The notes beneath the pieces were generated by a model. The model was given only the letters and a program-made list of their open reading frames with translations. It had not been told where the DNA came from and ran no database searches. A stretch of DNA of 61,874 bases, filler included, from Diploschistes diacapsis (lineage: Eukaryota), in assembly GCA_023645945.1 (NCBI GenBank). It is 13 parts of 13 records of this genome, joined end to end, with 100 filler letters (N's around TTAATTAATTAA, not from the genome) between each part and the next. Parts side by side here need not be neighbours in the genome. Positions count along the whole stretch, not along the records: positions 3,043 to 28,710 come from JALAIB010000204.1; 12 more parts are not named here. One strand, 5' to 3'. Position numbers and translations under genes: made by a program. Positions 3,428-48,682 of this stretch are shown here, piece by piece; within the stretch, counting starts at the first letter, position 1; every line of letters starts with the position of its first letter.

Positions 3428-4642
3428 TTACACGATGACCTCCCCGCCGTCGACGAGCACCGGCTTCCATTCCTTGCCGCCTCCCTCTGCGTCACTCGGT
3501 ACTCTGACATCCACGGGACTGTACAGGTACCACCCTTTCAGCGCACTTATTGCTCCTTTGAGGCGCGCCGAGTGGAGACTCGCACCGCTACCTTCTCCTA
3601 GCTTCTCGTTACCGCTAAAGACGCCAACGACGAAGACTGGCGTCCGACTGTGCCGGCCGGTTTCGCTGAGTATTCGTGCTACTGGCGACTCGAACCCTTC
3701 TCTTGCACATAATCGGCTCAGATCACGTGTCGGCTGCTTGAATTCGAACAGCGTGCTGAAATCTAATTTCCGGCTCGCAATATGCGCGTTGAAAAAATTC
3801 TTGGCCGCCAATCGCCCGCTGTGTATATAGACAGCACCGAAGACGGCATGCACAAATTGAGAACATGCTGTTTCATGCTTTATACCACTCTCGAGAAGAT
3901 TTTGGGCCTCCTGCTCCTCCGTTGTACTCGGGTCTTGTTCGCCCAAGTAGGAATCGTCGGTGGTGAAGGAGGTTATGCCCCGTCGCCATGGTTTCCGTAC
4001 CTTCTCTTCCATTTCTTGTCTCACATCCTTCACTAGAACGCCGGTACCCTCTTCTGCCTCCGCATTTCCGGGTTTCCGTCTTTTGTATTGTAACAGGCCA
4101 GGGTCGACCTCGCCCCCCGGCGTCGCGGCCACCTCAACTCCCCATTCCTTTGTCACCATCGCAAGAGCAGGACCTCCGACATAAGCTCTTGCTGCAGCAA
4201 ATATAACGGCAGTTGGCAGGCGAGGGTATTTGCTAAGGATGAGCTCGGTGGTATGGTACCCAAGAATGTCGTTTCCGAGGATTGAAAGAGAATTGTTATT
4301 GTAGGAAGGATGATGGTCCGCTGTAGGATCTATCAGACATCGCCCAAGAGTCTCCATAGGAAATCTAGGGGAGAGATGCAAGCGTGCATGTAGTGCGGCA
4401 AGCTTCGCAGACTGGCGAGCCGCAGAAGGTGGTGGTGATGGAAGGTGCTGAAATCGCGATCGGTCATTGCGAGGTGGCGGATGTGGGTTCTCGTGCACTT
4501 CTGGAGTTCCTGCTATGGCTGTAGCGCTCGCTGCATTCCGATGTGGTTGAATGCGGGCTATGCGCTGGAAGAAAAAGGCGGATGGTCGGGTTCGAGGAGA
4601 AAGCACATCGCCGCTCCATTTCGAAAACTGTAGCTTTCTCAT
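3428..4642 (-). CDS. MRPL3: Mitochondrial large-subunit ribosomal protein mL44 (RNase III-like + dsRBD)
   Basis: SAKLAALHARL, KYPRLP, PGGEVDPGLLQ, QPTRDLSRLCAREGFESPVARILSETGRHSRTPVFVVGVFSG, ALKGWYLYSP. Confidence 0.93.
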   Translation of the reverse strand: MRKLQFSKWSGDVLSPRTRPSAFFFQRIARIQPHRNAASATAIAGTPEVHENPHPPPRNDRSRFQHLPSPPPSAARQSAKLAALHARLHLSPRFPMETLGRCLIDPTADHHPSYNNNSLSILGNDILGYHTTELILSKYPRLPTAVIFAAARAYVGGPALAMVTKEWGVEVAATPGGEVDPGLLQYKRRKPGNAEAEEGTGVLVKDVRQEMEEKVRKPWRRGITSFTTDDSYLGEQDPSTTEEQEAQNLLESGIKHETACSQFVHAVFGAVYIHSGRLAAKNFFNAHIASRKLDFSTLFEFKQPTRDLSRLCAREGFESPVARILSETGRHSRTPVFVVGVFSGNEKLGEGSGASLHSARLKGAISALKGWYLYSPVDVRVPSDAEGGGKEWKPVLVDGGEVIV

Positions 4643-4964
4643 AAGCGTGAATCCGGAAAGACTGTATCTAAGGATTGTGCTTCATGTAGTATGTCTTCGG
4701 GTTAATAACAGCCAGTCGTGTATAAGAAGACAATAATCAAGAAAATGGAAAAAATCACGCTCGAGAATGGTATCGTATGAGCAGCGACAAAAGTCGATAC
4801 GGGTATAGATTAAGCTGGGAAAATGTTTCTCCGACAGATCCATGCAGTCGGCCTTTCGACGTCGAGGTGGTAGAACGACCGGAGCTACTAATGAGTAACA
4901 AAACATCAAGGCAACACTTTACAAACGTTCATAAAACATCACAGAAATCTGCTGCTTTAGCATT

Positions 4965-6340: not shown

Positions 6341-9089
6341 TCATGACTTCCTTTTCGCAATAAAATACATTAGCAAGTCCCGTTCGCTACTCTCCAACAC
6401 AGGAACCATCTCAAACAACGAATGGCCGTATCTTTTATACAAGCATACCCCCAGATCCACCCCTTCCCGTCTAGTACTTACGTCCCCAGACTTTAGTGCC
6501 TTCGCTAATACTTCGAAGGCATCGTTGGGAACTTGGCAGGATTGGTCCGAGACCAGTCCTTTCAGAACCCTGACAAACCCCGAAGTTAGTTCAGGCTCTG
6601 CAGTCACACCACTTACCTCTGTGGGTTTTCTAGTAGGACTGCCAGTGGGACTTACCGATCGAGAACTTGCCATGGATGGAATCTTGCTATGAGATTCCGG
6701 CGGGTTCGCGATGATAGTCAAAGGCCGACCTCGTTTCTGGTCGACTGTGTTCGTGGTGTTCATGTCATTCGTGCTGGTACCTTGCTTTGGTCCAGCGTTG
6801 GAAACTACATCTCTGGCAGTCTCGTTGGTGTAGGTAATGGCCACATTCTTAGGTCCAGTAATATTGGTTGCTTTCCTGAGAGCAACCAGAGGACGCTTTG
6901 GAGCAGATGAGAGTGTCCCAATGGAAGAGCTTGCAGTAGCTGCGGCAGTCTTGGGACGAGTGGGGATCGGTCTGGTTGCAGGGCGAACAGCCTTAGTAGG
7001 CCCTGCTCCGCCAGTGGTCGATCCGGCTGATTTCGGACGTTGCTCGGTGGTAGATGGGGTCGATTCGAGGGACTGTTCCGGTATGAGTTCTGGAGCAGGT
7101 TCGGGTTTCTCTAGAGCCTTCTTCTTCGCGTTGATATGGTCGCGTATTGAAGGTCGATCGGTACGGTTGCCCGTAGCAGTAGGAGCGCGGGTTACTGTGT
7201 TTCCCTTGCTCGTAGATCTTTCGCTAGCCTTTCCGTTGAGGCTAGGATGGTTTGGATTGCCCTGATGTGCGAGAAGTGACTTTTGCTTGGCAGGTGGTAG
7301 TGATTCCATCATGATATCTGCACGCGAAGGCCAGATGGCGCTGCAACTCCAGTAAGCGGCTTCGGCTTTACCGCGGACAGTGGCATCAGCATCGGTCAAG
7401 CCTTTATGGACAATCTTCTGCACAGTGTCGGCACCGCCCTTCTCTTCGAGCAGGTGCTTTGAGTTGTGGTATTTGGCGAGTATAGCTTCGAGCCAGCCAA
7501 TTGCAAAGCCACGAAGTCCTTTGTTCTTCTCTTCCATAGTGTTTGAGACATGTTGCATATAGCGAGGTGTGTAAGTGGTTTTTGTGAGAACTGCGATGAC
7601 GGCAATGTTGGCCTCTGACGCAGTCTGATGTTTAGTGTTTCCACACTGTTTGATAAGGGGATGGATGACGGATTCGACAATGGGGTCCAGATCAGAGCCG
7701 GCCTTTTCGACTGCTTCGACAACCAGGCGTATGCCGTTGGTTGATAGAGTAGTGCGGAGCGACATGACAGCTTTGATAATTCCTTCTTGTAGAAGTCCTC
7801 GAATGACCGCGATGTATGCCGCATTGTATCGTTGAGGAGCACTTGAGACGGTGAGTCTTCTAAGAAAGATTACAGTGTCCTGGCGGGACTTCCAGTTGCC
7901 TTCAGCTTCGTTGCCTTCAAAGTGAGGTGCGAATACTTGCACTAGTTCGATGATCTTGATGCGGCAAGGGTCAAGGACAAAAGGCCGAGTGAGGTAAACT
8001 TCTCCATGTGAAATTTCAGCCGGAACGGTGGGATCCAAGGGGTTTGAAGGCGCCATGGGGTATGGAGTATTATCTTCGGCCTAGATAGCTGGTGAGTCAT
8101 TGTTGTTGCTCTCAGGAAGAAACGATATCGAAGAGCGCTTCGTACCTTTGCTACTAGTTTGACTGGGAGTCTGGGGGCGGGGACGTGAGAGAAATCCTCG
8201 GCCTAGATCTCGTCAGTCATAGGACAAAAAATGCCAAGGAACGCTTCCTACCTTTGCTGAAAGCCCAGCGACGTGGACAGGGGCAAGAGAGAAATCTTCA
8301 GCCTAGATCTCGTCAGTTAAAGAACGAACGACGTCGAGGAACGTTTCCTACCTTTGTTGAGAGTCTCGGGACGGGGACGACGGGAGAGAAATCTTCGGCC
8401 TAGATCTCGTCAGTCATAGGACGAAAATGCCAAGGAGCCTTTCCTACCTTTACTGAGAGCCTAGCGACGTGGACAGGGGCAAGAGAGAAATCTTCAGCCT
8501 AAGTCCTGTCAGTCTCAAGAACGAACGACGTCGGGGAGCGTTTCCTACCTTTGTTGAGAATCTCGGGACGGGAATGGGAGAGAACTCTTCGGCCTAGACA
8601 GCTTGTGAGTTATTGGTTGCTGTTGCTCTCAGGGGCATCTCCTACCTTCTCGATCGTGGGGGAGGGAGGAGGGGACGGCAGCAGGAGAGGCAATCGAAAG
8701 GCAGGGACAGAAGCCGGCACTGGCGTGAGAGGCTGGTTGAAAGCAACAACCGGAGGAGAAGCAGGCCGAGGAACAGACTCAGGAGAGTCAAGCACCAAAG
8801 GAGCCGGGGTATCAGTTGTAGAACAGTCGGTTGGAACAACAGCGGGCAGCGAAGGTTCGGATGGCTCTCGAAAGGCGATCTGAAAAACATCATTAGCATC
8901 TGTGTGCATCTAGATATGAAGGCATCAAAGTACGAATGGTGAGCTGATCTGCTCCCAGGGGATCCCTCGTGCTTTGCAAGTCATCCAGCAGCCGAATACA
9001 ATGCCGGCTCTGATTCCCTCGCCGACCGCCATGATGGCGATTAGAAGCCAAATGGCCACTTGCGAATGGAGATCTAAACGCGTTTCCAT
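6341..9089 (-). CDS. CLASP_N-domain (Stu1-like) protein, ~793 aa, eight exons (9089-8934, 8879-8646, 8593-8549, 8498-8448, 8399-8352, 8302-8252, 8202-8146, 8080-6341)
   Basis: Last exon has CLASP_N hallmarks (FEGNEAEGNW..R, SLRTTLSTNG, LIKQCGNTK, KGLTDADATVR..A..AYW). Seven GT-AG introns with CTRAC/CTAAT/CTCAC branch sites, all phase 0, give one continuous frame. Confidence 0.8.
8081..8645 (-). repeat. Tandem ~100-bp exon+intron repeat array
   Basis: Unit (minus strand): TAG|GCYGAAGATTTCTCT...AAAG|GTAGGAA...CTGACGAGATCTAG, about 5.5 copies with an alternating dimer pattern. Confidence 0.9.
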
Positions 9090-9956
9090 TGCTGTGACTA
9101 CTGGCCGATGATGGTTTACAAATTGGAAAGCAGTTTCTGATGGAAAGTGCTCAAAGTTTGATGGAAAGCGTGAAAAGTTGATGGGGGGACGTGGAAAAAG
9201 TCAAGATGAAAGTGAGGAAAGAAGAATGGAAGGACAATTGGGCGAGGGAAGGGCTTAAGTACTATCGGCGAGGGTCGCTTTGGCGACGCTGACGAAACTT
9301 TGACTAACCTTCTTCCCGGCAGTAATCGCCTTTAGACCGATCAAGCTCAACGCAGAGCGATAGATGATTGAGTAAACTGGGTAGTAGTCGAGGCCTCTCC
9401 GTATGATGAATCTCGTCGAGAAGTATGACGCTTTCCTATGGTATGGTGATAGAGGAAACCGCTCTTTTTGCCTTGTTTATCTGCTGTCCGCACAATCTGT
9501 GGCACATCCCGACATCGCAGCGCCAAGATTTCGCGTAGCGAGAGAACCTCCAAACATCGAGAGAGCCGATTAACGTTGAGCGCAGCAGCGACGTTGAAGG
9601 TTGAAGATATTCGAAATGGAGGGTTTTGAACAAAGAGGAATCAAGTCTGGCTTATACAAATATTGCTTTGACGTCTGACTGCGCTAGATTAGACGCGACG
9701 AGGTTACATCTGAAATCTGCGCACTCTGATTGGACCATATTGCTCCTGCCGGCGCCACAACCGAGATTAGCTCTTCGCTGCTTTTGTCTCTGGTGGATCC
9801 CAGCATACTGGTAGCTGACCAGGGTATACGAGCTTGACCTTAGGGAGATATCGAAGGTCACACACAGACTTATGTCTGTGACTCCCAATGCTCGTGTGCA
9901 GACAATACCATAATCTGCTGAGAGTCTGCGTTCATTGTTCTATTCCAACATGAACT

Positions 9957-10823
9957 ATGACGCGGTCTAAACCTCTAACTACGCCTAAACCACTACCAAC
10001 TCCACTCGCCATGTCGTCTACCATGTCTGAAGCCAGAGAACCATTAGCTTCGCCCATTCCCAGACGCTCAGCTTCCCAGAATGCTGAAGAGGAAGCATTC
10101 CGTCCAGTACCAAAGCCAAAAATGCCACAGCCCAAGCTTCGCTTCGAGGTCCGAGATCTCTCCCATCCTGGCGCCTTACTGTTCCTTGAGAAGGTGAATC
10201 CGACTAGAGCGATTAGTGACGCGGTGACAATCGTGGTGCAATCGCTCTACGAGCCATTCACCGGCGATGTGCCAAGCCCAGCTGTGCGCTCGATCACGCT
10301 AGTCTTGAAGCCTATGGGAGGCGTAGCCTATACTACCGGGAACGAACTCGATGACGACCACAAGGAGATCCATTTCTCGCTGGACTATATAGTACACGCT
10401 GCCTCAAGCGGCCGCGGAGCAGAAGAGATCCGGGGCGTGCTTGTCCATGAGATGGTCCATGTCTGGCAGTGGAACGGAAAGGGAAAGGCACCTAGTGGCC
10501 TCATCGAGGGCATTGCGGACTTTATCCGTCTTAAAGCCGCATATGCACCGCCTCACTGGGAACGGAAACCAGGTCCGTCCTGGGATGCTGGGTACGAGAA
10601 GACGGCCTATTTCCTGGAGTGGCTGGAGGATGTGTACGGTACTGGAAAGGTTGGGGATATGAATGAGAAGCTAAGGCAGGAGGAGTACCAGTCAGAAGAA
10701 TTCTGGAAAGCCCTGTTCGGGCAGAGTATCGAAACGCTTTGGAAAGCTTACAAAGAAGAGCACGAGAACAGGGAGGGCCTTAAACAGACCTCACAAGACG
10801 AGGCTTTGGACACAAATAACTGA
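9957..10823 (+). CDS. BSP/PBSP-domain protein (basic secretory protein family, HExxH zincin-like)
   Basis: GGVAYT..ELDDDHKEIHFS.DYI, GVLVHEMVHVWQWNG, GLIEGIADFIRL, PPHW, WDAGY..TAYFL.WLE. Confidence 0.88.
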   Translation: MTRSKPLTTPKPLPTPLAMSSTMSEAREPLASPIPRRSASQNAEEEAFRPVPKPKMPQPKLRFEVRDLSHPGALLFLEKVNPTRAISDAVTIVVQSLYEPFTGDVPSPAVRSITLVLKPMGGVAYTTGNELDDDHKEIHFSLDYIVHAASSGRGAEEIRGVLVHEMVHVWQWNGKGKAPSGLIEGIADFIRLKAAYAPPHWERKPGPSWDAGYEKTAYFLEWLEDVYGTGKVGDMNEKLRQEEYQSEEFWKALFGQSIETLWKAYKEEHENREGLKQTSQDEALDTNN

Positions 10824-14618: not shown

Positions 14619-16988
14619 CTAATTCGTCCATTCTAAGCAAGATTCCCCTTGCGCTTTCTTCAGTACTCCATTCTCTTGATTCAAAAGCTTGCGTTTCTTA
14701 TTTGGCGATAGCTCCTCAAACACGGTTCGTGATCTAACATTCAAGATGGGTTTCTTGAAGATGTAGGTTGCCCGCTCAAAATCGATTAACATTACTCGCT
14801 GCCTTTCTGAGTTCCATAGGAGGTTTGGGGATCTGATATCGTGTTGTTCGACCCCGGCTTCGCGAACTTCCTTCACGGTTCTATCGACCTGAAGATCAAG
14901 GTCCACCGTATCGTCTAATATAGTCCCGCCCCATGCCATCAAAAGCATGTGAGTTATTTTAACTCCTAGGTCGAGATAATATCGTCTTTTTAGTTTTATG
15001 TATCCCAGACACGCTGGGATGGCATACCCCTGCAGGCCCTTTAGATGCTCGTAAACGTTCGCTTCATGTAAGAGGCATGGAGCAAAAGCTCTGACTGTGG
15101 CCTTGGCGACCAAAACGTAACCATGCGACATAAGCATTATTCGAAACAAGGCTCCCCGTGCTCCTTGGAGGCCAAGTGGCTTACAGCCACAGTCAGGATC
15201 AACTGCAAGTTGTGCTCTAACCAGTTCCTTCAACATATCCGCATTAACAAGATGACGACCGTTGAGCGATGGGTGCAAATCAACATTTGGGCAGCACCTG
15301 TCCACTGCCGTGCCATGAATTATGCCCAACGCGCAATCCTGCGTGCAGTATGGTCTTTGTTTTTTTGGCTTTTCAGTCTTGCTGTTCTGGTCACTTCGTT
15401 GTTTTTGTCCAGTGCGTCTGTCGCTGGCTGCTGTTGAGGTCCGCATGCCTGGACCTCTTTGGTTGCGCGTGCTGCGTCTGGGCTTGCTCGGTGTGTCGGG
15501 GTCATCATCATCGTCCTTCTCCGTCGGATTGGGATTGCTAGGATGGCTGGGCTTGCAGCCCATGTTCTTTATTCGTTCCCGGGTAAGGTATGGAGATCTA
15601 TCGATCGGTCGGCCCTTCGGGCCTCTGTAGGCGAAGTTTGGAGTTTCCTTCCTCTCCGACTTAGGTATTGATCGCAAGACAGCCTCATAATCAACTTTGT
15701 ACCTTTCGAGCTTGCGTTTGGCATCCCGTCGCCAATTTTGACTGCGAGAGGTAGATTGAAAGGCCAAAAGGCACAGACTCAACACAATGCCGATCGCTGT
15801 TTGCGAGAGTAGCACATCAAGATCTTTGTCTTCCACGTCTTCGGAAGGTATAGCAAGGTGGTAATACAGCGTTTCCGGGTCTTCACTTCGAACATGAAAG
15901 AAAACAAATGCTTCTCCAGTGGTTAAGTAGCTGTATTCAAGGCCGTATTCGATCATATCGTGGAAAACCTGCGTGGAAACAGCTGCAACTAACTTGTCTG
16001 CATTGTACTGTAGCTTTTCTGCCTTGCCCCTCCTGTCTTCGTCCGTCATGCTCTCGGTATCCTCTTTGTAAGTCGGAATCGTAGCTCGATTAATAATCTC
16101 CTCTTTCAAGTTCATGTCACGAAATCCTGCTTTGAGATTGCCAATTGATAGTTTGTGTGGAGGTTTGTACTCCACTGTGAGCAGTAGCTGCCGATTTTCC
16201 TCGGTCTCGCCGTTTTCGCTGTAGACACAGAACCGGTCCGGGCGGGTAGAAGGCTTCGGCTCGGAGCTAGGTTCAATGGACGAGCTCGATGGCGGCGGAC
16301 TGTTCCGTGGCGTCCGAATGCTCAAAGCTTCCAGGACTTCCTCTGCCGCATCGCTCAAAGAATTGGGACCATTCTCAAATTTGATGCTCTTATTCAGGCC
16401 AAATTGGGTCTGGGCCTCCGGAGTTTGGGAGAGATTGTTAATGATGCTTGTCACGATATTCTCCACCGCTATCTGCTCGTAGAAGCGTAGGGCTTGTTCG
16501 TCTGCCAGCCTATTTCGATTCAAATCCTCTCCAAGCTCTTGCAAGTATTGAGTGGATTTGAAACAGCGTTGGCCAGATTGACCGTCTGGATGGAAGTATT
16601 GATACGCCTTTTCGAACAATCCATGCAGGGTTTCAGGAAGCCCTTCCCACAGCCGTAAATTCTTGGGATAAAACTTGTTTTTTGGGCTTGTGGTGCCACC
16701 CTTTGTCGTCCAATTTGGATTGGTCTCAACAGTGAAGGCGGCTTGGAGATGAAGGTGGCATAATTCTAGGCATTCAGCCAAAGTTGTCTTTTGCGTACGC
16801 TTTTCCGCTATTCTTTGTTGCTCTTCCGCTATTCGTTGTTGCTCTTCCGCTACCGTTGCTCGTTCCGCTGCTCGTTGTTGCTCTTCCGCTGCTCGCTTTT
16901 GCTCTTCCGCTACTTGTTGTTTCGCTTCCGCTAACTGTCGTTCTGTTGCCTCGAGTAGAGCTCTGAGGCGCTCCTCCTGAGAAGACAT
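14619..16988 (-). CDS. Spok-family (spore-killer-like) nuclease-kinase protein, 789 aa, intronless
   Basis: Heptad coiled-coil repeats, then KTTL.E.L..CH and K.YPK.LR.W. Nuclease RPD(251)...EYK(275)PPHK. Cys cluster YCTQ.C.LG...CPN..LH. Kinase GARGALF, GYVLVAK(629), L.HE..VY..L..LQG..IP, HD(717)IRSPNLLWN.E..R.MLIDFE. C-terminal PNKKRKL NLS-like motif. Confidence 0.92.
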   Translation of the reverse strand: MSSQEERLRALLEATERQLAEAKQQVAEEQKRAAEEQQRAAERATVAEEQQRIAEEQQRIAEKRTQKTTLAECLELCHLHLQAAFTVETNPNWTTKGGTTSPKNKFYPKNLRLWEGLPETLHGLFEKAYQYFHPDGQSGQRCFKSTQYLQELGEDLNRNRLADEQALRFYEQIAVENIVTSIINNLSQTPEAQTQFGLNKSIKFENGPNSLSDAAEEVLEALSIRTPRNSPPPSSSSIEPSSEPKPSTRPDRFCVYSENGETEENRQLLLTVEYKPPHKLSIGNLKAGFRDMNLKEEIINRATIPTYKEDTESMTDEDRRGKAEKLQYNADKLVAAVSTQVFHDMIEYGLEYSYLTTGEAFVFFHVRSEDPETLYYHLAIPSEDVEDKDLDVLLSQTAIGIVLSLCLLAFQSTSRSQNWRRDAKRKLERYKVDYEAVLRSIPKSERKETPNFAYRGPKGRPIDRSPYLTRERIKNMGCKPSHPSNPNPTEKDDDDDPDTPSKPRRSTRNQRGPGMRTSTAASDRRTGQKQRSDQNSKTEKPKKQRPYCTQDCALGIIHGTAVDRCCPNVDLHPSLNGRHLVNADMLKELVRAQLAVDPDCGCKPLGLQGARGALFRIMLMSHGYVLVAKATVRAFAPCLLHEANVYEHLKGLQGYAIPACLGYIKLKRRYYLDLGVKITHMLLMAWGGTILDDTVDLDLQVDRTVKEVREAGVEQHDIRSPNLLWNSERQRVMLIDFERATYIFKKPILNVRSRTVFEELSPNKKRKLLNQENGVLKKAQGESCLEWTN
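16800..16936 (-). repeat. 21-bp tandem repeat encoding AEEQQR(I/A) heptads of the Spok-like coiled coil
   Basis: Plus-strand units TTCCGCT(A/G)(T/C)TCGTTGTTGCTC, about six imperfect copies. Confidence 0.85.
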
Positions 16989-17061
16989 TGATCGTGCGGG
17001 ACGTAGGTAGTAAACAAAACAAACACTCTGTTTACATCCAAGCGAAGCGCGGGACTAAATA

Positions 17062-29574: not shown

Positions 29575-31150
29575 ACGTGAATGCATAATAAGTGGGCCAA
29601 CATAGTAAGTAGGCTACCCCATCAACATTTTTACCACCACTATCTTTATCGTACGATATCTTAACCAATACTCATTGAAATCTTAATCTAAAAAAGCTCG
29701 TACAATCCTTACAATTAAAACTTTCAAACAAAATCCTTATTAAAATATACGTACGCTTACCGGTATTTATAACGTTAATCGTACAACGTTAATCCGTCGC
29801 ATCAAAAATCGCAACGCGCGCGTTAATAATATTCTTAAATCTCGTAATATAACTTTCTTAAAAGAAGAAATGATTATACGAAAATATTTTATCTAAATTC
29901 GCGAAAATTTCCACTCAAACTTCGTCACGTTAAAGATATAGCGAATTAACTTCGTACCGTACGAAACGCGCCGCCCGTCGGCCCACGTTAAACTTCAAAT
30001 TTTATTAAACAATAATTAAATCTATCCACGCGTTTTACGCGTAGATATAATTATCAAAAAACTAAATACAAAGATTTAATTATAATTTATAACTAATTTA
30101 AACTCGTACGAAACATAATAACCAAACACGGGATCCAGAATCAAGATATTTAAAATTTTAACAAGATCGGATTTATAATAGGCGTTATCTCGTCTATTAT
30201 AATCGTAATCAGTTCAAACAGACGTAGAAAGACTAAAATAATTCAGCCAATAATCGAAAATAAATAACAATTATTTAAACCGTTAATTCGTACGGTTATA
30301 ATATTCCGCCGTTTATCATTCTAACGAGCAAAAATTATCTTCAATTATGATATCGCAACAGCCCATTATCATTTTATTGAACCATCGCAGTTAACGAAAA
30401 CGGTTAAATTACTAATAAACTCGATATAAAATAAATTAAATATTTCGATAAACATACTCGCGACCGTACGAAAAGTATTAAACGTTTATTAATATTAAAT
30501 CATCATAAAAACCATCATTCGTACGAATTTAAGAAATATTATAAAAACGAAACGATTATAACGTTTTATATACCTACTCTTTTATTTCATATATTTCAGC
30601 CGTTAGATGTCGATTACTTTAATCATTTAAAACGTGCGTACGGCAAGCAAATCGAAAATTTGATCCGTATATATATTAATTATATCATTAAAATCGGATA
30701 CTTAACCGCGTTTAAAAACGCGTTTTACGCATCTTTCAACGAACAACACGTACGAAAAAATTTCCGAAAATAAAACTTATTCTATTCGATCCGCAATCCA
30801 TTATTTTAAAACTTAATATAAAACTTCGTACGTCTATATCTCCTATATCCTCTTCCGCAAATACCAACCCTTAGATATATAAAACACCATATATTTCATA
30901 CGAAGCTTCTACGCATACCGAATACATTAAAAACAAAATCGCTAAACATCATAACAATTCTCCAACATCTATTTATAGGGCTATAAATCAAATATTTAAA
31001 GATACGAACACGGTTATACATCAAGTAATATTAATAAAAAATCGTATTAATCAACTTACAACCGCCAATCGTACACTTAACAAACGTCGACGCGAAAAAA
31101 AAACACGCGTACGAAAAGAAAGAACCTTTACTATAAAAGATACAAAAGAT
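29575..31150 (+). mobile_element. RIP-degraded Fot1/Pot2 (pogo-like) transposon, 3'-interrupted
   Basis: TA|ACGTGAATGC...GGGCCA...GGCTACCCC TIR. Relic transposase with HTH-psq (IYNVNRTTL.RRI), CENP-B HTH and DDE_1 QP.NR region, many TAA stops. Confidence 0.8.
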
Positions 31151-31746
31151 CATCACGAAAAGTTTTTGGCGGCGAAACACCGCGAAAATCCGCGAAGTTG
31201 GCGAAACTGGCGAAACCGGTAAGGTGGGCAACAGATAATGCGTTCAAGCGACTCGCCAACTTTCGCCAAAAGGTTTAGCGAAACATGGCGAAACTGGCCA
31301 AAGCGGCGAAAGCGGCGAAACTGGCGAAACTGGCAAAAACCGGCGAAGATGGCGAGGCCAATCATTTTTTACTAATATATTATGTAAGCAAAAAAATTAA
31401 TAAATATAATATAATATAATAATAATAATAATTAATTAATGATTATATAATTATAATTAGTATTATATTATACAAAGTATTTTCGCTAAGTTAATAAGTT
31501 ATTAATAATACTCGAGTTAATTGGTACTAGTGGTATCGGATTTAACGGGGTTTAGTAGGTACTATATATTATCGCGAAAATATTGAGAATGGCGTATTTT
31601 ATATTACGTAAGCGTTGATATTCGTCGCGTGAGAGCTTTAGCGAGTTTTAAACGCTAGTTATCCGGCGCTAAATTAGCGGATTTTCTTAATATTTTTCTA
31701 GAAAAATATTAAAAAAAATGCTTTTTTATTTTTTGATTACGTAATA
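31151..31746. mobile_element. End of unclassified DNA element (CATCACGAAAAG family), copy 2
   Basis: Direct repeat of 29328-29574 with GGCGAAAC motifs. Runs to contig end. Confidence 0.7.
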
Positions 31747-32896
31747 NNNNNNNNNNNNNNNNNNNNNNNNNNNNNNNNNNNNNNNNNNNNTTAATTAATT
31801 AANNNNNNNNNNNNNNNNNNNNNNNNNNNNNNNNNNNNNNNNNNNNTAAATAAATATAATTAAAGAAAGGGATGATTCTACAGGTACTTAAAATTATAGA
31901 CAAATTTAAATAATTAAAAAAGTATCTGTAGAATTATGGTATTTATTTTATAATTTATGTATATAATAGGCAGAATAGCACTTGCCCGAGTATGCCTGTT
32001 CGGGATGTTTATTTTGTTGACATCAAAAAGCGGTGGTCTTTGGGTCGCGTAGGATAAGAAACCAGCAATTCACAAGACCGCACTCATTCTCAGTTCGACG
32101 CACCTAGTTCCTATAAGTTGTACTTCTGTGAAGTATGTCATATGGCCAATTTGATATTTTGAAATTACCTTTTGTCGACCAAGCAATCTGGCTATGAACG
32201 CATTCCGAAATTCACCTTATTCTCGAGCAACGAACGACCTGCCTCCAGCAGTCGCAGACATACAAAGAGCCAGAGTGCTTAGCATTAAGGGCTTTCTCTC
32301 TACGAATGATGAGCTGAACCGTATGGCTATTTGTGGAGCTAAACGTGTCTCATCCTGCTGCTACGTGAACCCGTTACTACTTACTATGCTACACTCAACT
32401 CTGGGCTTGAAGTTGTACACGCATAATCTTCCTTTACTTCAAATGATCTGAGAGGCATCGAGACCAAGAGCAAAAGATATGGAGCGAAGGGAGACTAAGG
32501 TGATGGGATCAGTGCATTAGGTTCTTCATAGCGGCCTCAATGAATCAGATCCTACTCCATCGGTCCTCTTAGCTGATCGTATATATGCAGACCTCCTAAG
32601 CCGGTAATTGCTTTTAGTTATCAAGTTCACCTTCTATGTCGTCCGTCCAGATGCGTGACTTCTGGCTTTGGCTTCTGCCCCTTGTCTACTGCATAGAAGG
32701 TTTCTCCGTAAGGATACAACGTTGGCATTCGACCTTCGAATAGCAGTACGAGCAGCATCATCATCCAGGAACATTCAACAGCCTTCCTGTCCCCTCACCG
32801 CACCGCCAGATCCCCATCAACTGACAGAACTCGACTCAAAGCTGTCCATCCGGCCCCCTGCGCTGCGCCCGCTACCCTCCTTCATTCCTTAATTCA

Positions 32897-33649
32897 ATGC
32901 CTGCTCTTCAGACCACGGCTTCTCCTTCGTCATCCCGTACGGAAGGCCAGGACAACTCCGCCATGTCCTCCATCAGGCTGCAAAAGACCGTAGTCACTAC
33001 CTCCGCCCGCTCCCGTCAGTCTACTCATACTATAATGCCTCCTCTCCAGGCCATGATTTCTCCTCGCCCCTCCCACCGAGGACTCCACGACTACTCCTCC
33101 ATATCCCCCAGCAGGCTGGCGGAGGACATAGCCACCACCTCATCCCACTCCCCTCCCTCTGATCATACTACAGTGTCTGCTCTTAAGGCCATGATTTCGA
33201 CTTCCTCTTCCCAGCCTCCACGCCATGACCGCTCTTCGATATCCTCAACCAGCCTGCCGAGCGCCACCGCCGCCTCCTCTTCAAACTATTCGACCTTCAT
33301 CGGCCTCAACATCGGCATAGCCGTCGGCTTCGGCGTCCTCGTCTTACTCCTCGCCACCATCACTTTTCTTCTCTGGCGCCGCCACCGCATCTACAAGCGA
33401 GCACTGGGCCCATACCGGAATCCGGTGACGCGGATGGATCTGCAGCAAGTGTCGTCGCATGTGGGGTCTTTCGGAGGAGCTCCCAGGTCACAGAAGGATG
33501 GAGGAGTAGCAGTGGGCGAGGAGTACGCGGAAAGGGCGAATATGGAGGTAGTGCGGAGTTTGAGAAGCAAAGAAGAGGCAGAGAAGGAAAGAGCGTTCGG
33601 TTATAGGTACGCGGGAGAAAGTGAGCAGAAATCAGAGCTGGCGGCGTAG
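32897..33649 (+). CDS. Ser/Thr/Pro-rich single-pass membrane protein (Mid2/mucin-like architecture)
   Basis: S/T-rich N-terminus, TM IGLNIGIAVGFGVLVLLLATITFLLW followed by RRHR stop-transfer, short tail. No clear signal peptide. Confidence 0.65.
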   Translation: MPALQTTASPSSSRTEGQDNSAMSSIRLQKTVVTTSARSRQSTHTIMPPLQAMISPRPSHRGLHDYSSISPSRLAEDIATTSSHSPPSDHTTVSALKAMISTSSSQPPRHDRSSISSTSLPSATAASSSNYSTFIGLNIGIAVGFGVLVLLLATITFLLWRRHRIYKRALGPYRNPVTRMDLQQVSSHVGSFGGAPRSQKDGGVAVGEEYAERANMEVVRSLRSKEEAEKERAFGYRYAGESEQKSELAA

Positions 33650-39309: not shown

Positions 39310-40213
39310 ATGAACTCGAAGGGAAAAGTCCCTGACGCTTGGGACGACGATTGGGTAGACAAGGCAAATGTGTGTAAATTCCGACCCTTGTTCGGTACCT
39401 ACGATCCAGTCTAAGGTCGACTGATTATTCGCAGACCTCCGAGAAGATATCGCAGCAGCCTGCACCATCAAGCAAGAAGCTCTCCAAAGCAGAACGGAGA
39501 GCGCAGCAAGCCGAGTTCAATAGGAAGCTTTGGGAAGAAGCGTACGTGCTTATTGCGGATCAATTAGTGTTTGCTCTAACCTGCGCTTCAGCGAAGCTGA
39601 GAATTCCAATTACTTCGTTGAATCACGCAACGTTGTCCCCCTTCAATCAAGTTTCAAGCCAAATGTTACTCTTCTATCAAGAAAGCCTGTCCCCGCCGTG
39701 ATTGCAAAGAAGGATCCTACGTCGGGGATCGAACAACTCAGCATTCATGGCGATGATGACGATGAGGAGGATCAGGCCAAGCTCAAGGTCCTTACGGCGG
39801 AAGAGCAGGCGTTGAAGGCGCAAAAGGAAAGAGAGGAAAAGCAGCGAAAGTATAATGAAGCACGACAGCGGCTTTTCGGAGCACCCACAGCGTCTCCGGA
39901 TACGACCTCCGCGAGGAGTAACACTCCTGTAAGAAGTAACGCAACGGACAGGGGAAAAGGTCGGGGACGGGGCGGAGCAAAGGACGCCAAGGACGCTCGA
40001 GATAGCAGGCCAACCTCATCCCAGTCCTCAAAGCTGTTGTACGACCCTAATTACACTTCCAAACCAGATTCTGTATATTTGCAGAGGAAGGAAGCCTTAG
40101 AGAGCCCGGCAACGCCCCGGATCGAAGACCAAGTCATCAGGAATCCAAGGGGTCCCGACGGTAGCGGTAGAGGCGGTATCGGGTTCGCGAAGAGGGAGGA
40201 CCCGAAAGCCTAA
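39310..40213 (+). CDS. SUZ-domain protein (SZRD1-like), three exons
   Basis: VPDAWDDDW, LLSRKP, REEKQRKYNEARQRLFG (SUZ), VIRNPRGPDGSGRGGIGF (SUZ-C). Two GT-AG introns. Confidence 0.88.
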
Positions 40214-40599
40214 TTTTGCCCAGGGCTTTCTTGCACCTCCTCGAAGAACTCGTATTCGCACATGCAGACTTCTCCGGTGATGATCTTGATTAAGCATAGT
40301 AAGCACAGCTCTAGCATTTGATGACCGTGTTTTGACATTAACATTCAGGCAAACAAGCTTGCACAATCCTGCCGGTGTGGCTCTTCCAGATTGTGTTTAC
40401 TGCACGCAAGGAACCATGCATTCCAACCCTTTCCTCAGGAATGTACCTGTCAAATATCATTATGGTATGCAGGCACATTAATCTACTTGCCGAACTTCAA
40501 ATATAACAGTCTTCTAAATTTTCTTTTGCTTTGCTCTTCTCCAACCGTCATCACTTTTGAACAGTCACTCTTTTGGTGGTACACTCATTTTCTATCACG

Positions 40600-40821
40600 A
40601 TGTCACGAACATTCACCATTCTTATAGCCATTGGGGCTATCTATGCTCCCATTGCCCATGCTGCCGCCTTACCTGAAGCTCTTCCTATACCCAACGCCGA
40701 TGCCGAAGCTCAAGTCGGTCTTCCCCTCCCGCCAACTCTCTCCGTAACCTCAAATATCGCCTCAGCCATTTCCTCCGCCACCTCAGACCTCAGCGGCACC
40801 CACCCAGGCATTTCCACCCCC
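40600..40821 (+). CDS. Secreted protein, 5' fragment
   Basis: Signal peptide MSRTFTILIAIGAIYAPIAHA followed by X-P/X-A dipeptides. Cut by contig end. Confidence 0.6.
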
Positions 40822-40921
40822 NNNNNNNNNNNNNNNNNNNNNNNNNNNNNNNNNNNNNNNNNNNNTTAATTAATTAANNNNNNNNNNNNNNNNNNNNNNN
40901 NNNNNNNNNNNNNNNNNNNNN

Positions 40922-42470
40922 TATTAATTTTTATAATAACTAAAGATTTAGAATGTTATTAAATAGACGTTAATAATAAATTTATCGAAAAATTATTAAC
41001 GTATTAGATTTACATAACCGCATTAAATAGATATAACGTTCTAAAAAACACCATACTTAAGATTAATAAAAGCTTATATAAACTAAAACAGGCGGTCAAA
41101 AATTAACATAAAAAATACGACAATATAATTCTAAATTTAGGATTCGTCCGATCTAATATTAACCCGTACGTCTTCATTCTACGAAATCGAAAGCTATTAA
41201 TTGACCTTTAAGTAAACGATATTATTATAACAACGCCGAAACTACGTAATATATACTAAGTTAAGAAAGCACTCGCTAAACGCTACAAGATCAAAAATCT
41301 AAAGAAATAACAAAACTCCTAGAAATAAAAGTTCAACGATAACGTAATTCAGATTTAATAAGTTCAACTGAACTAACCCTAGATCAAGAAACATACGTCG
41401 AAAAAATACTCCAGCGTTTCAAGATAATAACGGACACATACAAGAACCAAAAAATACCGCTCAATAAATACGACGGCATTAAACCAGGCAAAGAATCCTC
41501 TAAAATAACCAAAAAAATACAGTATCAAAAGATTATTAATAATATTATAAACTTAACGATCTATACGAGACCAAACATCGCATTTACCATTAAAAAGTTA
41601 AGCCAATATATAACTAACCCATACACCTATCATTTACATACTTTAAAAGAACTATTCCGCTCTATTCGAAAAATAAAAAATATTAAAGTTCAGTTTAGTA
41701 CTAAATCTGAATTTTCGAAACTACGGGGATATTCCGATGTAAATTATAAAAAAGATAAGTCAGATCGAAAATCTACGTATAAATATATCTTCCAATTATA
41801 CGGTAAACCAATATCTTAAATAAACAAAAAATAAAACACAGTTTCAACATTAATTATAAAAACTAAAGATATTAATTTATCTCACGTCGCTAAACAAGTC
41901 TTATAATACTCATAATTCTTAAGAAATATTAATTATCTTGATCTTATAGGACCATTTCTATATATTATCAATCTACTCGGCGATAATATTGGTTCCCTAA
42001 ATTTAATAAAATACGCAAGAATCAACGACCGTTCAAAACACGTCGATATTACTTATCATCACGTACGAGATCTTATTAAATAAGAACGCATTAGGATGTC
42101 TTATATCCCTATCGATAAAATAATTGCTAATAGGTTTACGAAACCACTAAACTACTTAAAACACGACGCCTTCATCAAAGAACTCGATCTAATTCAAAAG
42201 ATATCCAATTAAACTATATAGACATATCGGATAATTCCGTTTATGGAGGAATATTAAGCAGATAAATAGAAGACATAACTAGAAGTATAACTAAGTTCTA
42301 GAAGAAGGTTCAGTTCAGCTGAACTTCCTGGAATTCCAACTAGACCGAATAAGGAATAGTGTAGGTAGTAGGGCTTAGTATATCTCACGAGGATAAAAGT
42401 CTACAAAGTAGGGTAACCTCCTAGATAAGACCTCTAGACTTCAATATATCCATTACGTTGCCAAACAATC
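40922..42470 (+). mobile_element. RIP-degraded Ty1/Copia 3' end (RT, RNase H, PPT, 3' LTR from ~42252)
   Basis: Relic motifs K.LY.LKQA, TRP.IAF, GYSD, DRKST, RSKHVDI.YHHVRD, IA..FTKPL. Purine tract precedes TATTAAG (RIPed TGTTAAG). Confidence 0.8.
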
Positions 42471-42479
42471 TAATTGATT

Positions 42480-43757
42480 CTTTACTTTTATAATATAGTC
42501 TTTAATTATTTTAATAACGTCATTTTTTTAATTTATGAGCGTTATTTCGGCATATTTAATAACCGAATCGAGAAATGTAACGAAATATTGATATCTCGAG
42601 AATGTTTTCGGTAATATCGGGCCGCATATATCCGAATATATTAGTCCTAAATAGACAGTTTGGGGCTCTGATGGTTTCTTGGATATCTTCTTCGTCGCTT
42701 TGGCCTGTATGCATGTTATACAAGGCTCCTGATTGGACGATTTAGCGAAATTAACACCTATTGCCTATTTAGGCAGGTGTTCTAGGGCTGGGGAACCGAT
42801 GTGTCCCATTCGCTGGTACCAAATCTTTTTGTTGACTAAATCCTGGTTAGTAAAAGCGGTGTCCTTTTTTATTATTAGTTTAGTAGAGATAATAATCAAG
42901 TTATTTAAATAAATACCTTTTATTAGTAATCTATTGAAATAAACATGACAATAATCGTTATCTAAGATAATTATCGCGTCTTTTTCGCGTAGCGCGGTAA
43001 CGGAAATAAGATTTATTCTTAAATCCGGCGCGTATTTACAGTTCATCAGTCAAAGAATCCGATTGATAGATTTGATCCGAAATTTTGTTATTCCGACGCC
43101 GAGGATTTTGATCTGGGCTACCTAGCCCCACCGTAGGGCTAGGTCACATGATTCGAATGATTCAAAAGCCGATAAATTCGAACAGATATGCGAGGTAGCT
43201 GTTAAATCAAGAATCCAGTCTGTTTGGTCGGAAGAGGAGAAACTAATTTCCGAATTGGGCCTAGTGTCTTTTAACGAGATAAGGAAGATTAATGTGGTTT
43301 TTAAATCCGGTTTAACGCGTTTTGGTCTTTTTTTAAAATGTTTTTTTTAGTAATCATTATTGTTATATCTAGTTTTTTTATAAATAGGGTATTTTTTAAC
43401 CTCCTTTTTTGGATTAGCGTCAGTTATTTGGCGGCTTTCGCTTGTTGGTCGGCTAGCGTTTATTAATCGGTTAGTTAACGCCATTTCGATATCGATATCG
43501 CCCTTTTTTGTCTTTAGCCGCACCGATTCGTCGATTAATTAAAAAAAATAATATTTAATTTAATATTAAGAGAATTGTTGTTCCGAATCTATTAAATAAT
43601 TATCGTTATTAATCCTTCGTAATCTTTAGTAAGATTATTCAAGATCTAAATAACTATGATTTTATTTAAAATAATATATTTCGTGCTGATAAATCATCTA
43701 TTAGTTGTTTAATCTAATTAATATAAGTTTTTATCTTTCTTCTTTTAATAAGCGTCG
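42480..43757 (-). mobile_element. RIP-degraded Copia gag-protease-integrase fragment, opposite strand
   Basis: WILD..ATSHICS protease motif, PDLRINLISV, GAG-pre-integrase WYQRMGHIG, L.YSDICGP. Confidence 0.75.
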
Positions 43758-43836
43758 TGTTACGATCCAAGTTACTAGGTGGTAGTCCACTTGGTACTTC
43801 ACAGCTGATCGGGCCTAACCCAACCATTCCTTATAT
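43758..43836 (+). mobile_element. 5' start of Gypsy-family LTR inserted into the Copia relic
   Basis: Begins TGTTACGATCC, as do the LTRs at 49036, 45361 and 60184. Confidence 0.65.
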
Positions 43837-43936
43837 NNNNNNNNNNNNNNNNNNNNNNNNNNNNNNNNNNNNNNNNNNNNTTAATTAATTAANNNNNNNN
43901 NNNNNNNNNNNNNNNNNNNNNNNNNNNNNNNNNNNN

Positions 43937-45814
43937 ATCATATATGAATAGATCGAATTGTAAGAATTTATAGACATTTAAACGAAATCATTAACGATAG
44001 AGACAAGTTCTTTATCTCGAAATATTAGAAAATCATAATAAAAGCGTTCGGCATAAAGTTGAAATATTTAAACGTTTATTACCTATAAATAGACGGTCAA
44101 ATAGAAAGAATAAATTAAACTTTTAAACAGTATTTACGGTATTACGTTAATTAAAATATAAATAATTAAATTAAATTATTATTAAACGCCGAATACTGCC
44201 TTAATAATAAATACAAAGAAGTTAAGAAGATTTAGAATACACGATCATTTAATAACGAAATATTGAATAATATTAGAAGACACGCGGTCTCAAGGAAGAA
44301 TCCTTAGTTGAAAAAGGAAGATAAGATCTATTTATATATAAATAATTTTAGGACACGTAGATTCTTTAGAAAGCTCGATCACGTCAAAATCGGACCTTTC
44401 TTTATCGATAAACAACCCGTCATACCGGACGAAACCAAACGAGTTAATTATCGATTTAAGTTATTAAAGAACGCGAAAGTTTATCTAATATTCTATTCAC
44501 GATACCTCGAACCAGCATATTTAGACATACCGTTATAAAAAACCTTCTACTTCGAAACAGATAACGAGAACGAGTACGAAGTTAAAAAGATCTTAAATAA
44601 TAACCCCAACGGATTCTTTATTAAGTAAAAAGAATACCCGTTAAAATAAAACACGTAAGAACCTTTAAATAACCTAAGTAATTATAAGAACAAGATAAGA
44701 GAATACCGTAGATTTACTTAACTTAAAGGGATAAGAGCTTTATCCTTTAAAGATTAATTTAATTAAACCGGCGACATCGCAGCCAGTTCTAATAATTCTG
44801 GACCGAACTTTAAAGATACGTCTTCTTAAGCGTTCGCGTACGCCTCGAACGATTCTAAATCTAATTTTTCCGTTAAACACTTCGCTTACGCGTTCGCACG
44901 ATTTTCCGTCAATTTAAGAACCTTTCGATTACGGCGAATACGACGTTTACGTTAAAAACGACGATCCTTAATTTCACGGAATTACTTTTCTAACTCTTCT
45001 TCTTATTCATTATCCTCGTTTATAAACTTTTTATCCTTCTCGATCTCGCCTTTCTTCGAAAGGATGATCCGTTTAACTACCTTCCATATAATAGAAACGC
45101 AATCCTTTCTATTAAACTTAATATAACGAGCATATTTCACCGAGATAGAAGGCATTCTAATATAGTCGTGAGAGAATAAATAGTGGTTATAAGATAATGT
45201 ATCTAAAAAACCCCGAAGACGAATAATAAAATTTAAACGTTTCTTTTATATCGAAAATAAAGAAAATATCGCTGTTTTACGATTTAAGATTTTCTTTATT
45301 TAATATTTATATTAACCCTTCGGTGCTTATCGGGCCGATAAGGCTGAAAAAAAAAGATAATATTACGATCTAAGGTATTGTTCGGTAATACTTAATACGT
45401 AATAATTAGTCGGGCACTTCCCAATTATTTCTTATATATAATCCAATTAGGATAACACGGGTCACGTGATAAATAAAAAATCTTAAAGACCATTCTACTC
45501 AGTCGTAAATAGAAAGAAAGAACGGTAATTCTATTTATTTATTTATTTATTTTACTAAGAGAGCTGTTAACTATATAAGAACGTCGTTATGGCCTTTATA
45601 AGTCCAGAGCGTGTTCATTTTTATAAATATCTTAAGTTATTATTCGGGATCAATTTATATTCGTTATTTCTATCATTTTAGAGCCTTCTTTCCAGAAATA
45701 GTCCAAGACCTATGACTGCTCTATCTTCTTCTCCTACCACACTCCTCTTCTAACAGAGACCAAACCCACCTTGATCCTACTCGTGTATACCTTGTATAGA
45801 TAGAGATCATAACA
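43937..45814 (+). mobile_element. RIP-degraded chromovirus (Ty3/Gypsy) 3' half: integrase, chromodomain, antisense ORF, PPT, 3' LTR 45361-45814
   Basis: DRD..F.S, DGQ.ER.N, KLDHVKIGPF, EYEV.KIL...IK.K.YP...NT.EP. 454-bp LTR (T)ATTACGATC...GATCATAACA. Confidence 0.9.
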
Positions 45815-46150
45815 CCGGGTTCCGGCCACCTTAAACACTACCGTTAACATTCTATGGTTTTTAGATATAATTTGTTCGTCGTAACTAGAGTCTAAGCGAT
45901 CCGAATTGAATCTATTCTTTTCTTTTTTATCTTTCTCGATTTTAGAAACGCGACGACGTTTTTTACGCGTTATAAATCGTTTTAAAATTATTCGATTCGA
46001 TTTAATTCGAATTATTATTTTAAAAACTTCGTCTGTATTAAATATAAAACGACCTTTTAATTCAATTCGTTTATTTAATTTACGTTTTTTACGATTATTA
46101 AAAAGCGTTTTTTATTTTCGGTTTTCTTTACGAAGCGTTATAAGTTTAAT
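45815..46150. mobile_element. Fragment of Fot1-like element end (ACGTGTTTGACGG family)
   Basis: Matches 52675-52873, 61479-61584 and the reverse complement of 60638-60909. Confidence 0.75.
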
Positions 46151-46851
46151 TAGGCTGGCCGTTGAATGCCACGGTCACTGACACGGACACTACCGCGAAA
46201 ATTTTCTCGGCACGGACACTTCCACGGACACTACACTGCAATAAAAGCACGGACACGGACATTACGGCTAAAATTTTTAAAACACGGATACTTCCACGGA
46301 CATTACACTGCAGTGAAAGCACGGACACGGACATTACGATTAAAAATTTTAAAACACGGATACTTCCACGGATACTATATTATAATAAATTCACCGAAAT
46401 ATTACCGTGAATCTATCGAAACACTGCGATGAAAAAATAAAAGCGTAAAAAATAAACGTAATAATTCTAAAATTATTAAAAAATAAATATTATTTAAAAG
46501 TGTTTCGGTAAATATACGGACACGATAATAAATTTATTAACACGGATATTATAATTAAAAATTTTAAAACACGAACATTTCCACGGACACTACACTATAA
46601 TAAAAGCACGGACACGGATACTACGGCTAAAAATGTTAAAAGACGGACACTTCTACGGATACTATATTGTAGTAAAAACACGGAAACGGACATTACGGCT
46701 AAAAAATTTAAAACACGGATACTTCTACGGATATTATATTATAATAAATTTATCGAAATATTATCGTGAGTTTATCGAAATACCGCGATAAAAAAATAAA
46801 AGTATAAAAAATAAACGTAACAATTTTAAAATTATTAAAAAATAAATATTA
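46151..46851. mobile_element. hAT-like element end with ACACGGA(C/T)AC subterminal repeats
   Basis: Starts TAGGCTGGCCGT (same at 61585; inverse ACGGCCAGCCTA ends at 50033). ~66-bp and ~300-bp repeat periodicity. Confidence 0.75.
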
Positions 46852-46951
46852 NNNNNNNNNNNNNNNNNNNNNNNNNNNNNNNNNNNNNNNNNNNNTTAAT
46901 TAATTAANNNNNNNNNNNNNNNNNNNNNNNNNNNNNNNNNNNNNNNNNNNN

Positions 46952-47021
46952 CTTCTAAACGAGACCAAACCCATCTTGATCTATACCTTGTGTCTATCTT
47001 GTAGAGATAGAGATCATAATA
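46952..47021 (+). mobile_element. 3' end of Gypsy-family LTR
   Basis: ...CTTGTAGAGATAGAGATCATAATA (RIPed AACA end). Confidence 0.75.
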
Positions 47022-47406
47022 AGGAAAAACCGAAATTTATATAAATCATATAAACTTATTAAAGTTCACGACGATAAAGAAACTTAACCTAAAACAGTTT
47101 CGATAATTAAAAATTCTCGAACGATACCGTTTCACGATCAGAAAGATCGCAAATAAAGCAAACGAACGAACTAACGCGTTAAACAAACGGCCAGACTATA
47201 TAACAAAAGAATCACGTCAAGTTAGACTACTAAAGATCAATAATAATAAGTAACGACTAATAATTTATTATTCGAGAAAGATATTACTAATAAAAATTAA
47301 TTACGATATAAACGATTAAGAATTACTCGCCATAATCGCTGTTTTAGACGAATGGCATATTTATATTTACGAAACAAAGGAAACCGAAATCTATATAGAC
47401 TATATA

Positions 47407-48682
47407 CAGTCACGTGCCAAAAGTAGTTAGGTATCAAATAAACAAATACCACCTACCAACTTTATTGAGCCATTGCGCACTTAATAAAGCTTCAATAAAT
47501 ACGCAAAGTAAATCATTTTAAAACTCTTAAATAATAGATTATATTAATATTTAATTTGCCATCCTTGCGCGTCGATACAAGCCTCTATTCGCTTCGGCAT
47601 AGAATACATTAATCTAACAAGTAAATCCCACTCCCTATCCCCCAGAAACATCCCAAAAACGTCTCGAATTACTACTTTCAAAACCTCTATCTTCTTCTCC
47701 TTACCCCCGTGCATAATTTTAAGCTCTGGATAAAGCTTTAAAACCTCCTCTTTAAACGTAGGCCATAAATGCTCGATAAGGTTCAGATCCGGGTTATAAA
47801 GGAAATAATCGAGCGTTTAAACGCCTAATTCTTCCAAAAATACTTTAACACTATTAACTGTATATATAGGGGCATTATCTTGCAAAAAAGCTTGTCTAGG
47901 TTCGTAAATTTGGGGCATAATATCACGTAAAAGTCGACAATATGCTTCGACGGTAGCTATTCGTTTATTTATATAATATTCGTCGAAGAAACACCACATA
48001 ACGCGCCCGTCTACCTTCATAAAAGCGACTATTATAATACTCTCCTTATTCTTAAATTTAATAACGATATGCTCGTGCAGCCATTACTTCCCGGAATGCT
48101 TCCAAACCCATTATCGCATCTTACCGCTATTAATCTATATTGAGCATTCATCTGCCTATCAAATATTGGCCCAATCCTCGGCACGCCAGCTCCTATATAC
48201 TTTAAAATACCTTAGGCGTTTTATAACATCTTTAAAGTCCAAATAAGGGCGCCAACGCTTTCGATATTTTTTAAAAAATGGATCGATTTCGGCGAATCTT
48301 CGGCGGATAGTATTTCTATTAGCAAGCGTTATTTCGATTAATTCGTGCTATTGTGTGTCTGGCTATCTCCTAGCGCGTCGATAGAACCTATTTTCTTAAT
48401 TTTCGGTAATAGTTCGGGGTCGTCCTGAGCGATCGAGATTATATTACTTATTATCGCGCTTTAAAGCTTTCTTTTTGGTATATTAGGCTATAAAATAGGG
48501 AATATTAAGCTTTTAGGCAACATTTTTGAAAATATTACCATTATAGAAGGCGCCGAGGAGCTCCGAACGCTCGAAGAACTTCAAACGGCGTTGTGGTGGC
48601 ATAATTAGAAGAATAATAGCAAAAGTTGAATGTTTATTTACTACCGCTTATGGTGGACCTAACTACTTTTGGCCTAGTACTG
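47407..48682 (-). mobile_element. Full-length 1276-bp Tc1/impala-like transposon, RIP-inactivated
   Basis: TIRs CAGTCACGTGCCAAAAGTAGTTAGGT / ACCTAACTACTTTTGGCCTAGTACTG with TA on both sides. Relic ADECSI, FLQDNAPIYT, PDLNLIEHLW. Confidence 0.9.

Follow-up and report, generated by a model that had tools for sequence, protein, structure and literature searches.

In a 61,874-nt stretch of the genome of the lichen fungus Diploschistes diacapsis (GCA_023645945.1; 13 parts of 13 records joined end to end, the window below), a tandem array lies on the minus strand at positions 8081–8645, immediately upstream of the large exon of a gene with a CLASP_N / TOG domain. The array consists of five open segments of 45–57 nt, which alternate with six homologous intron-like segments of 48–65 nt in the order A-B-A-B-A′. 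Every junction is in phase 0, and the open segments are in frame with the large exon. Quite possibly, though by no means surely, the units are coding micro-exons of a lineage-specific N-terminal extension of the protein; their transcription, splicing and translation are predicted here from the DNA sequence. An intron and a short exon at the 5′ edge of the large CLASP_N exon would have been copied head to tail, after which two diverged units, A and B, would have been copied once more as a dimer, leaving six homologous short introns and five 45–57-nt exons with splice signals and a common reading frame kept. All six introns would most likely be removed, and the micro-exons would be spliced to two exons farther upstream (E-1 and E0), forming a Pro-rich, lineage-specific extension of about 200 residues ahead of a single-TOG protein.

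Read 5′ to 3′ on the minus strand, the array opens with the intron-like segment I0 (8594–8645, 52 nt). This is followed by micro-exon E1 (8549–8593, 45 nt, type A), I1 (8499–8548, 50 nt, GTAGGA...ACTGAC...TAG), E2 (8448–8498, 51 nt, type B), I2 (8400–8447, 48 nt), E3 (8352–8399, 48 nt, type A), I3 (8303–8351, 49 nt), E4 (8252–8302, 51 nt, type B), I4 (8203–8251, 49 nt), E5 (8146–8202, 57 nt, resembling type A apart from a 12-nt insertion) and I5 (8081–8145, 65 nt). All intron-like segments start with GTAGGA except I5 (GTACGA), and in each a branch-like ACTGAC (ACTCAC in I0 and I5) stands about 10–14 nt 5′ of a terminal TAG. The exon end before each of the six is AAG. I5 is composite, resembling the inner introns over its 5′ half and matching, over its 3′ half, the 3′ half of I0, and a 30-nt repeat with 90% identity is common to the I0/E1 and I5/E6 junctions. 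The large exon, E6, opens with GCCGAAGAT (AED...), the first nine bases of which repeat the micro-exon start as a sixth copy. A preliminary description of this DNA had listed exons of 45, 51, 48, 51 and 57 nt with five peptides, phase 0 introns of 48–65 nt keeping donor, branch point and TAG in an AB-AB pattern, and a next exon starting AED in frame with a 571-aa CLASP ORF (open reading frame). All of this holds on the minus strand, and the translations reproduce the five listed peptides exactly.

The array is the top-scoring tandem repeat of the window. Tandem Repeats Finder reports a period of 100 in 3.2 copies (76% matches) and a period of 197 in 2.2 copies (87% matches), the latter corresponding to the A-B-A-B pattern, and a repeat search returns five unit copies at a spacing of 96–106 nt. 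Two 23-nt unit probes, allowed up to three mismatches, have matches within the window inside the array only, with none expected from shuffles. Type A exons E1 and E3 are identical at 41/45 aligned bases and type B exons E2 and E4 at 48/51 bases, while the paired introns share 40/49 (I1/I3) and 44/48 (I2/I4). Homology between adjacent units extends over exon and intron alike, which bears out the earlier proposal that what is repeated is an entire short exon together with its intron, and all six introns can be aligned with one another. Since units and introns are homologous and the exon start recurs a sixth time at the head of E6, intron number appears to have risen by tandem copying of an existing intron–exon boundary. 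Local alignments of the exon interiors with the 3′ end of E0, as a possible origin, are not significant (p = 0.12–0.48).

The preliminary description had further proposed that this intron gain was recent. The tandem copying of an intron–exon boundary stands, but 'recent' holds only in a relative sense. In a comparison of contigs covering the locus from three DNA data sets, one of which (X3) lacks cover over parts of the array and one of which may itself have supplied the present DNA, the three isolates differ by about 1–2.5% at this locus, whereas copies of one type differ by 6–18%. The duplications therefore long predate the divergence of the isolates.

In a MAFFT alignment of units 1–4, the 18 splice-signal columns that we ourselves had defined beforehand (donor −3 to +6, six branch bases and the terminal TAG) are all invariant, against 43/79 of the other columns (Fisher p = 9e-5). 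The segment lengths of 48–65 nt are compatible with clean short introns of 45–56 nt elsewhere in the window, of which a handful are usable among the 98 mostly overlapping candidates of a window-wide ab initio intron census. Retention of any of the six introns would introduce a stop or a frameshift. A reading that we consider rather doubtful is that the array is an unspliced spacer minisatellite of approximately 100-nt units, that the CLASP_N gene begins at 8056 and that the 774-aa gene model deposited for this locus, described below, is an ab initio over-extension. Such a spacer would leave unexplained the invariance of the donor, branch and acceptor columns while 36 of the 79 others vary, as well as the in-phase first donor at the end of E0 and the in-frame last acceptor 24 nt before the Met codon of E6. 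Nothing else found at the locus explains the conservation: a search of Rfam with 7800–9500 gave no matches at E ≤ 0.1, and the plus strand of the same interval holds no convincing ORF among those listed. The invariance fits equally well with a second alternative, an unlikely one, in which the units are spliced but non-coding mini-exons of the 5′ untranslated region (5′UTR). Transcription would then start in or just after the pyrimidine-rich exon E0, translation would start at Met 8056, and the common frame would be coincidental.

Evidence for coding comes first from the lengths of the exon parts, which differ by 3, 6 and 12 nt. When the inner introns I1–I4 are aligned, by comparison, the gaps among them are of 1 nt each, and longer gaps distinguish I0 and I5 from them. 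The multiples of three are unexplained by a spacer repeat and would be unexpected in a 5′UTR, although they represent three events only. When E0, E1–E5 and the 24-nt leader of E6 are joined, frame 0 contains no stops and the other two frames contain three and seven. With codon-usage log-odds derived from the remaining long ORFs of the window, the micro-exons score +0.224 per codon in frame 0 and −0.41 and −0.30 in the other frames, a preference for frame 0 that also argues against the 5′UTR alternative. E0 and E-1 score +0.079 and +0.113 in their predicted frames and are positive in no other frame, and the introns are negative in every frame. These scores lie within the top 6–12% of all windows. 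Among the first five conserved exon codons, as read from the alignment, all three variable columns are third positions. A coding role best explains the combination of frame-keeping length differences, codon bias and a conserved region around the upstream ATG.

That upstream region contains two predicted exons. E0 (8646–8879, minus strand) comprises 78 codons, is Pro-rich, contains no ATG, and adjoins I0 with an AAG end. It is separated by a 54-nt, AT-rich intron (intron −1, 8880–8933, minus strand; donor GTACTT, branch CTAAT, acceptor CAG; five ATGs inside) from E-1 (8934–9089, minus strand), which runs for 52 codons from an ATG at 9089–9087. E-1 encodes a hydrophobic stretch with a Kyte-Doolittle maximum of 2.9 over 11 residues, and its ORF matches no Pfam family. 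The deposited protein uses a second ATG, at 9032, and not that at 9089–9087; the two contexts are ACAGCAATGG and GCCATCATGG, and a purine occupies −3 of the ATG at 9089. Over 8916–9187, which takes in E-1 and its 5′ flank, a contig of isolate X2 shows no differences, suggesting that something functional starts there. This conserved block is left unexplained by the 5′UTR alternative, in which moreover translation would begin at a Met (8056) with C at −3, a weaker context than that of both upstream ATGs. Were the array an unspliced spacer, E-1 and E0 would instead form a separate upstream ORF, small or spurious, with a stop 11 codons into I0, which is again somewhat doubtful. In the pyrimidine-rich stretch just 5′ of the ATG at 9089 there is a tandem repeat of approximately 20–21 nt in 2.3 copies (9138–9184), and single-base deletions occur at 9183 and 9195 in part of the X2 contigs.

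Two features of the leader are in keeping with a 5′UTR. The 510-nt spliced leader contains no ATG, whereas four of the six introns hold one, but this depletion is not significant (P = 0.06). E0 is also 69% pyrimidine, and pyrimidine tracts are found upstream of fungal start sites.

The large exon E6 (6341–8080, minus strand) comprises 579 codons plus a stop. Its frame is open for 579 codons from stop to stop and for 571 from the first Met, which is codon 9 (8056–8054). It contains a strong CLASP_N domain (PF12348, E 2.5e-62, 210.9 bits against a Pfam cutoff of 27). The best database match of the gene is a 774-aa NCBI protein, P0001 ('MAG: hypothetical protein LQ340_002231 [Diploschistes diacapsis]'), in which Pfam finds one CLASP_N / TOG region, with a sub-threshold XMAP215_CLASP_TOG match falling inside it. 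Splicing 9032–8934 to 8879–8646, the five micro-exons and 8080–6344 yields P0001 with every letter identical. The exon–intron structure of the array is thus already in the public annotation. It had been stated that the ORF track misses this structure entirely; that is correct for stop-to-stop ORFs and incorrect for the deposited gene model, which includes all five exons. Just downstream of the stop of the CLASP_N frame, at 6250, X2 and X3 both carry a 21-nt insertion, the two copies differing at one base.

According to the paper that lists this metagenome-assembled genome (PMC9907504), annotation was by funannotate (Augustus, GlimmerHMM, SNAP, EVM), with hints from expressed sequence tags and from protein models of three other lichen fungi; the term 'RNA-seq' does not occur in its text. 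The deposited model, as an ab initio prediction from a pipeline for which that text mentions no RNA-seq, is therefore not independent evidence. This is also what would be expected if the model over-extends into a spacer. Agreement on one model from three ab initio predictors merged by EVM lends weak support, which overlaps with the sequence-based arguments. In the open-access literature searched there is no earlier account of this gene, nor of comparable arrays in any lichen fungus.

Several observations weigh against a coding role for the units. None of the seven close orthologs (proteins from ENA records, 547–587 aa, 55–60% identity) has the extension. In five of them the first residue falls in the alignment column of Met 9, and in the remaining two it lies 3 and 12 residues past that column, within an otherwise variable stretch; all seven share the C-terminus. 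The ATG at 8056–8054 is therefore taken to be the ancestral start codon. Depending on how the ortholog genes were called, upstream exons could have been missed in them. Since all seven begin at a Met inside E6, the upstream part is a lineage-specific extension, a 5′UTR or an ab initio artefact, and the short orthologs favour the last two. Both of these alternatives also gain from the orphan status of the extension: among the proteins searched, residues 1–203 of the model, and the E-1 peptide by itself, match only P0001. A hydrophobic N-terminus is, furthermore, odd for a cytoskeletal TOG protein.

The sequence of E0 adds to these points. In the 221 nt covered (8659–8879) it differs from isolate X2 at six positions, near the rate of the spacer (20/802), as a 5′UTR would, and only one of the six changes is at a third codon position. 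The same count by codon position is unusable for E6, where 45 differences are not itemised. The E0 stretch is open in four of the six frames, so its openness carries little weight, and a region poor in stops is in keeping with the spacer alternative. Among open windows the codon scores are ordinary, 29–57% of them scoring equal or higher. Further conserved bases flank the signal blocks of the unit alignment, and because the micro-exon units are copies of each other they amount to approximately two independent samples and not five. Measured against the fungal consensus GTRNGT, the array donors GTAGGA and GTACGA are without the usual T at +6, and that of intron −1, GTACTT, is without G at +5; such off-consensus donors speak for the unspliced alternative.

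Differences among isolates at the junction between the array and E6 bear on the same question. One contig each of X2 and X3 contains a joint from 8064 to 8302, skipping 237 nt, with a shorter side of 27 letters, at a likeness threshold of 85 and within the repeat; repeats are a frequent source of joints of this kind. The X3 contig, of 524 nt, places 354 nt on 8417–8064 and 34 nt on 8064–8031, with about 136 nt unplaced. This hints at a structural polymorphism of the array/E6 junction, as seen through a 27-nt overlap in a repeat at a relaxed threshold. Departure of the contigs from the window at this point is what a fast-changing spacer repeat would produce. A more elaborate version of the coding interpretation, which we regard as decidedly improbable, is that of a coding minisatellite with its own introns, the module number of which is still changing among isolates. 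The array would determine how long a Pro-rich tether links the TOG domain to a new hydrophobic anchor at the N-terminus, and an upstream ORF together with what was once a 5′UTR intron would recently have supplied the whole extension to a gene that otherwise starts at Met 9. The related suggestion in the preliminary description, that exons are skipped in frame to tune the length of a Pro-rich linker, is a matter of arithmetic only and is unsupported. In a survey of 23 fungal species, skipped exons account for 3% of alternative-splicing events and intron retention for 61%, which the authors credit to intron definition (PMC3925392).

The interpretation of the units as coding micro-exons can also be set against the wider family. 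An exhaustive HMMER search returns 751 relatives at E ≤ 0.001, and beyond the cluster of orthologs identity does not exceed 38%. The leader before the TOG domain ranges in distant homologs from none to about 100 residues, in some cases Pro-rich; N-terminal variability is thus normal in the wider family. For ortholog DNA, an alignment-based metagenome scan confirmed none of 236 pattern matches. Three loci that match a 21-nt pattern of the array were rejected as chance, the match spanning 21–24 nt only. The 774-aa model, being a prediction, calls for caution in annotation, as the close orthologs suggest a 571-aa protein.

Elsewhere in the window, the divergent neighbour of the gene, 868 nt from the ATG at 9089, is a 289-codon ORF on the plus strand (9954–10823) that encodes a complete BSP domain (PF04450, 'Peptidase of plants and bacteria', E 1.4e-68). 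Two genes downstream, a 417-codon ORF on the minus strand (3431–4681) has weak matches to Ribonuclease III and to the double-stranded RNA-binding motif (E 1.3e-5 and 1.2e-4) and may be an RNase III-like gene. A 21-nt tandem repeat in 6.6 copies (16799–16933), with a period that is a multiple of 3, lies in an 811-codon ORF on the minus strand (14622–17054) with no Pfam family and is probably an ordinary coding minisatellite. Another repeat with a period divisible by 3 (138 nt, 1.9 copies, 73% matches) is found at 32947–33213. AT-rich blocks at approximately 30000–32000 and 40000–52000 have a GC content of 0.28–0.35, compared with about 0.5 elsewhere. The AT-rich blocks contain tandem repeats of 40–72 nt built on a CACGGACA-type motif, with repeats at 46176–46748 and 61604–61822, and look like degraded repeat or transposon islands.

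The protein itself resembles CLASP / Stu1 in having one strong CLASP_N / TOG domain. Canonical CLASP / Stu1 proteins have several TOG domains and a C-terminal partner-binding domain and are at least 1000 aa long, whereas here a single Pfam TOG lies in a core of approximately 570 aa, in a protein of 571–774 aa. In many relatives with 34–41% identity, the matching domain is situated 280–550 residues into proteins of 1000–1400 aa, as in Stu1-type proteins, which have another TOG domain ahead of it. The D. diacapsis protein is related to CLASP / Stu1 but has a single TOG domain and is not a canonical multi-TOG member. If the coding interpretation is true, it has gained an N-terminal extension that its relatives are without.

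If transcripts confirm the predicted structure, the array would be an unusually clean fungal case in which introns multiplied through the tandem copying of an intron–exon module, and one in which every intermediate would still be readable: the outer copies, the A/B dimers and the composite final intron. Plants, flies and humans already provide described examples of tandem duplication across intron–exon boundaries and of arrays with splice sites in their units, and a 2007 paper on introns from tandem arrays reportedly treats such arrays as a source of introns. The micro-exon genes of schistosomes encode secreted proteins, and most of their coding sequence consists of micro-exons of at most about 81 nt; the micro-exons here sum to 252 of the 2,322 coding nt. 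The likeness to these genes (bioRxiv 10.1101/2023.06.21.545858) lies only in runs of short symmetric exons with lengths that are multiples of 3, which allows any subset to remain in frame. Schistosome introns reach 5 kb, whereas those considered here are 48–65 nt long and belong to a cytoskeletal TOG protein. Fungal introner-like elements (PMC4457414) likewise involve near-identical short introns that multiply in a fungal genome. Those elements are dispersed in unrelated genes, whereas the present units are confined, within the window, to the array.

Further parallels come from tandem duplication itself. Internal tandem repeats, and introns derived from variable numbers of tandem repeats, reshape the structure of human genes (PMC2812944). 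As in those introns, each minisatellite unit here carries its own donor and acceptor, so that many short introns and exons would arise from one array; the present case differs in being fungal, with few units, introns of approximately 50 nt and, probably, intron definition. The mechanism also matches that of the potato RdRp gene, with its transcript-proven intron gain through tandem duplication across an intron–exon boundary (PMC4974935). In both systems a duplication that spans such a boundary copies ready-made splice signals and thereby adds introns. The potato gene gained one extra intron and has transcript proof, whereas the D. diacapsis array would comprise five to six modules, arranged A-B-A-B and predicted from the sequence.

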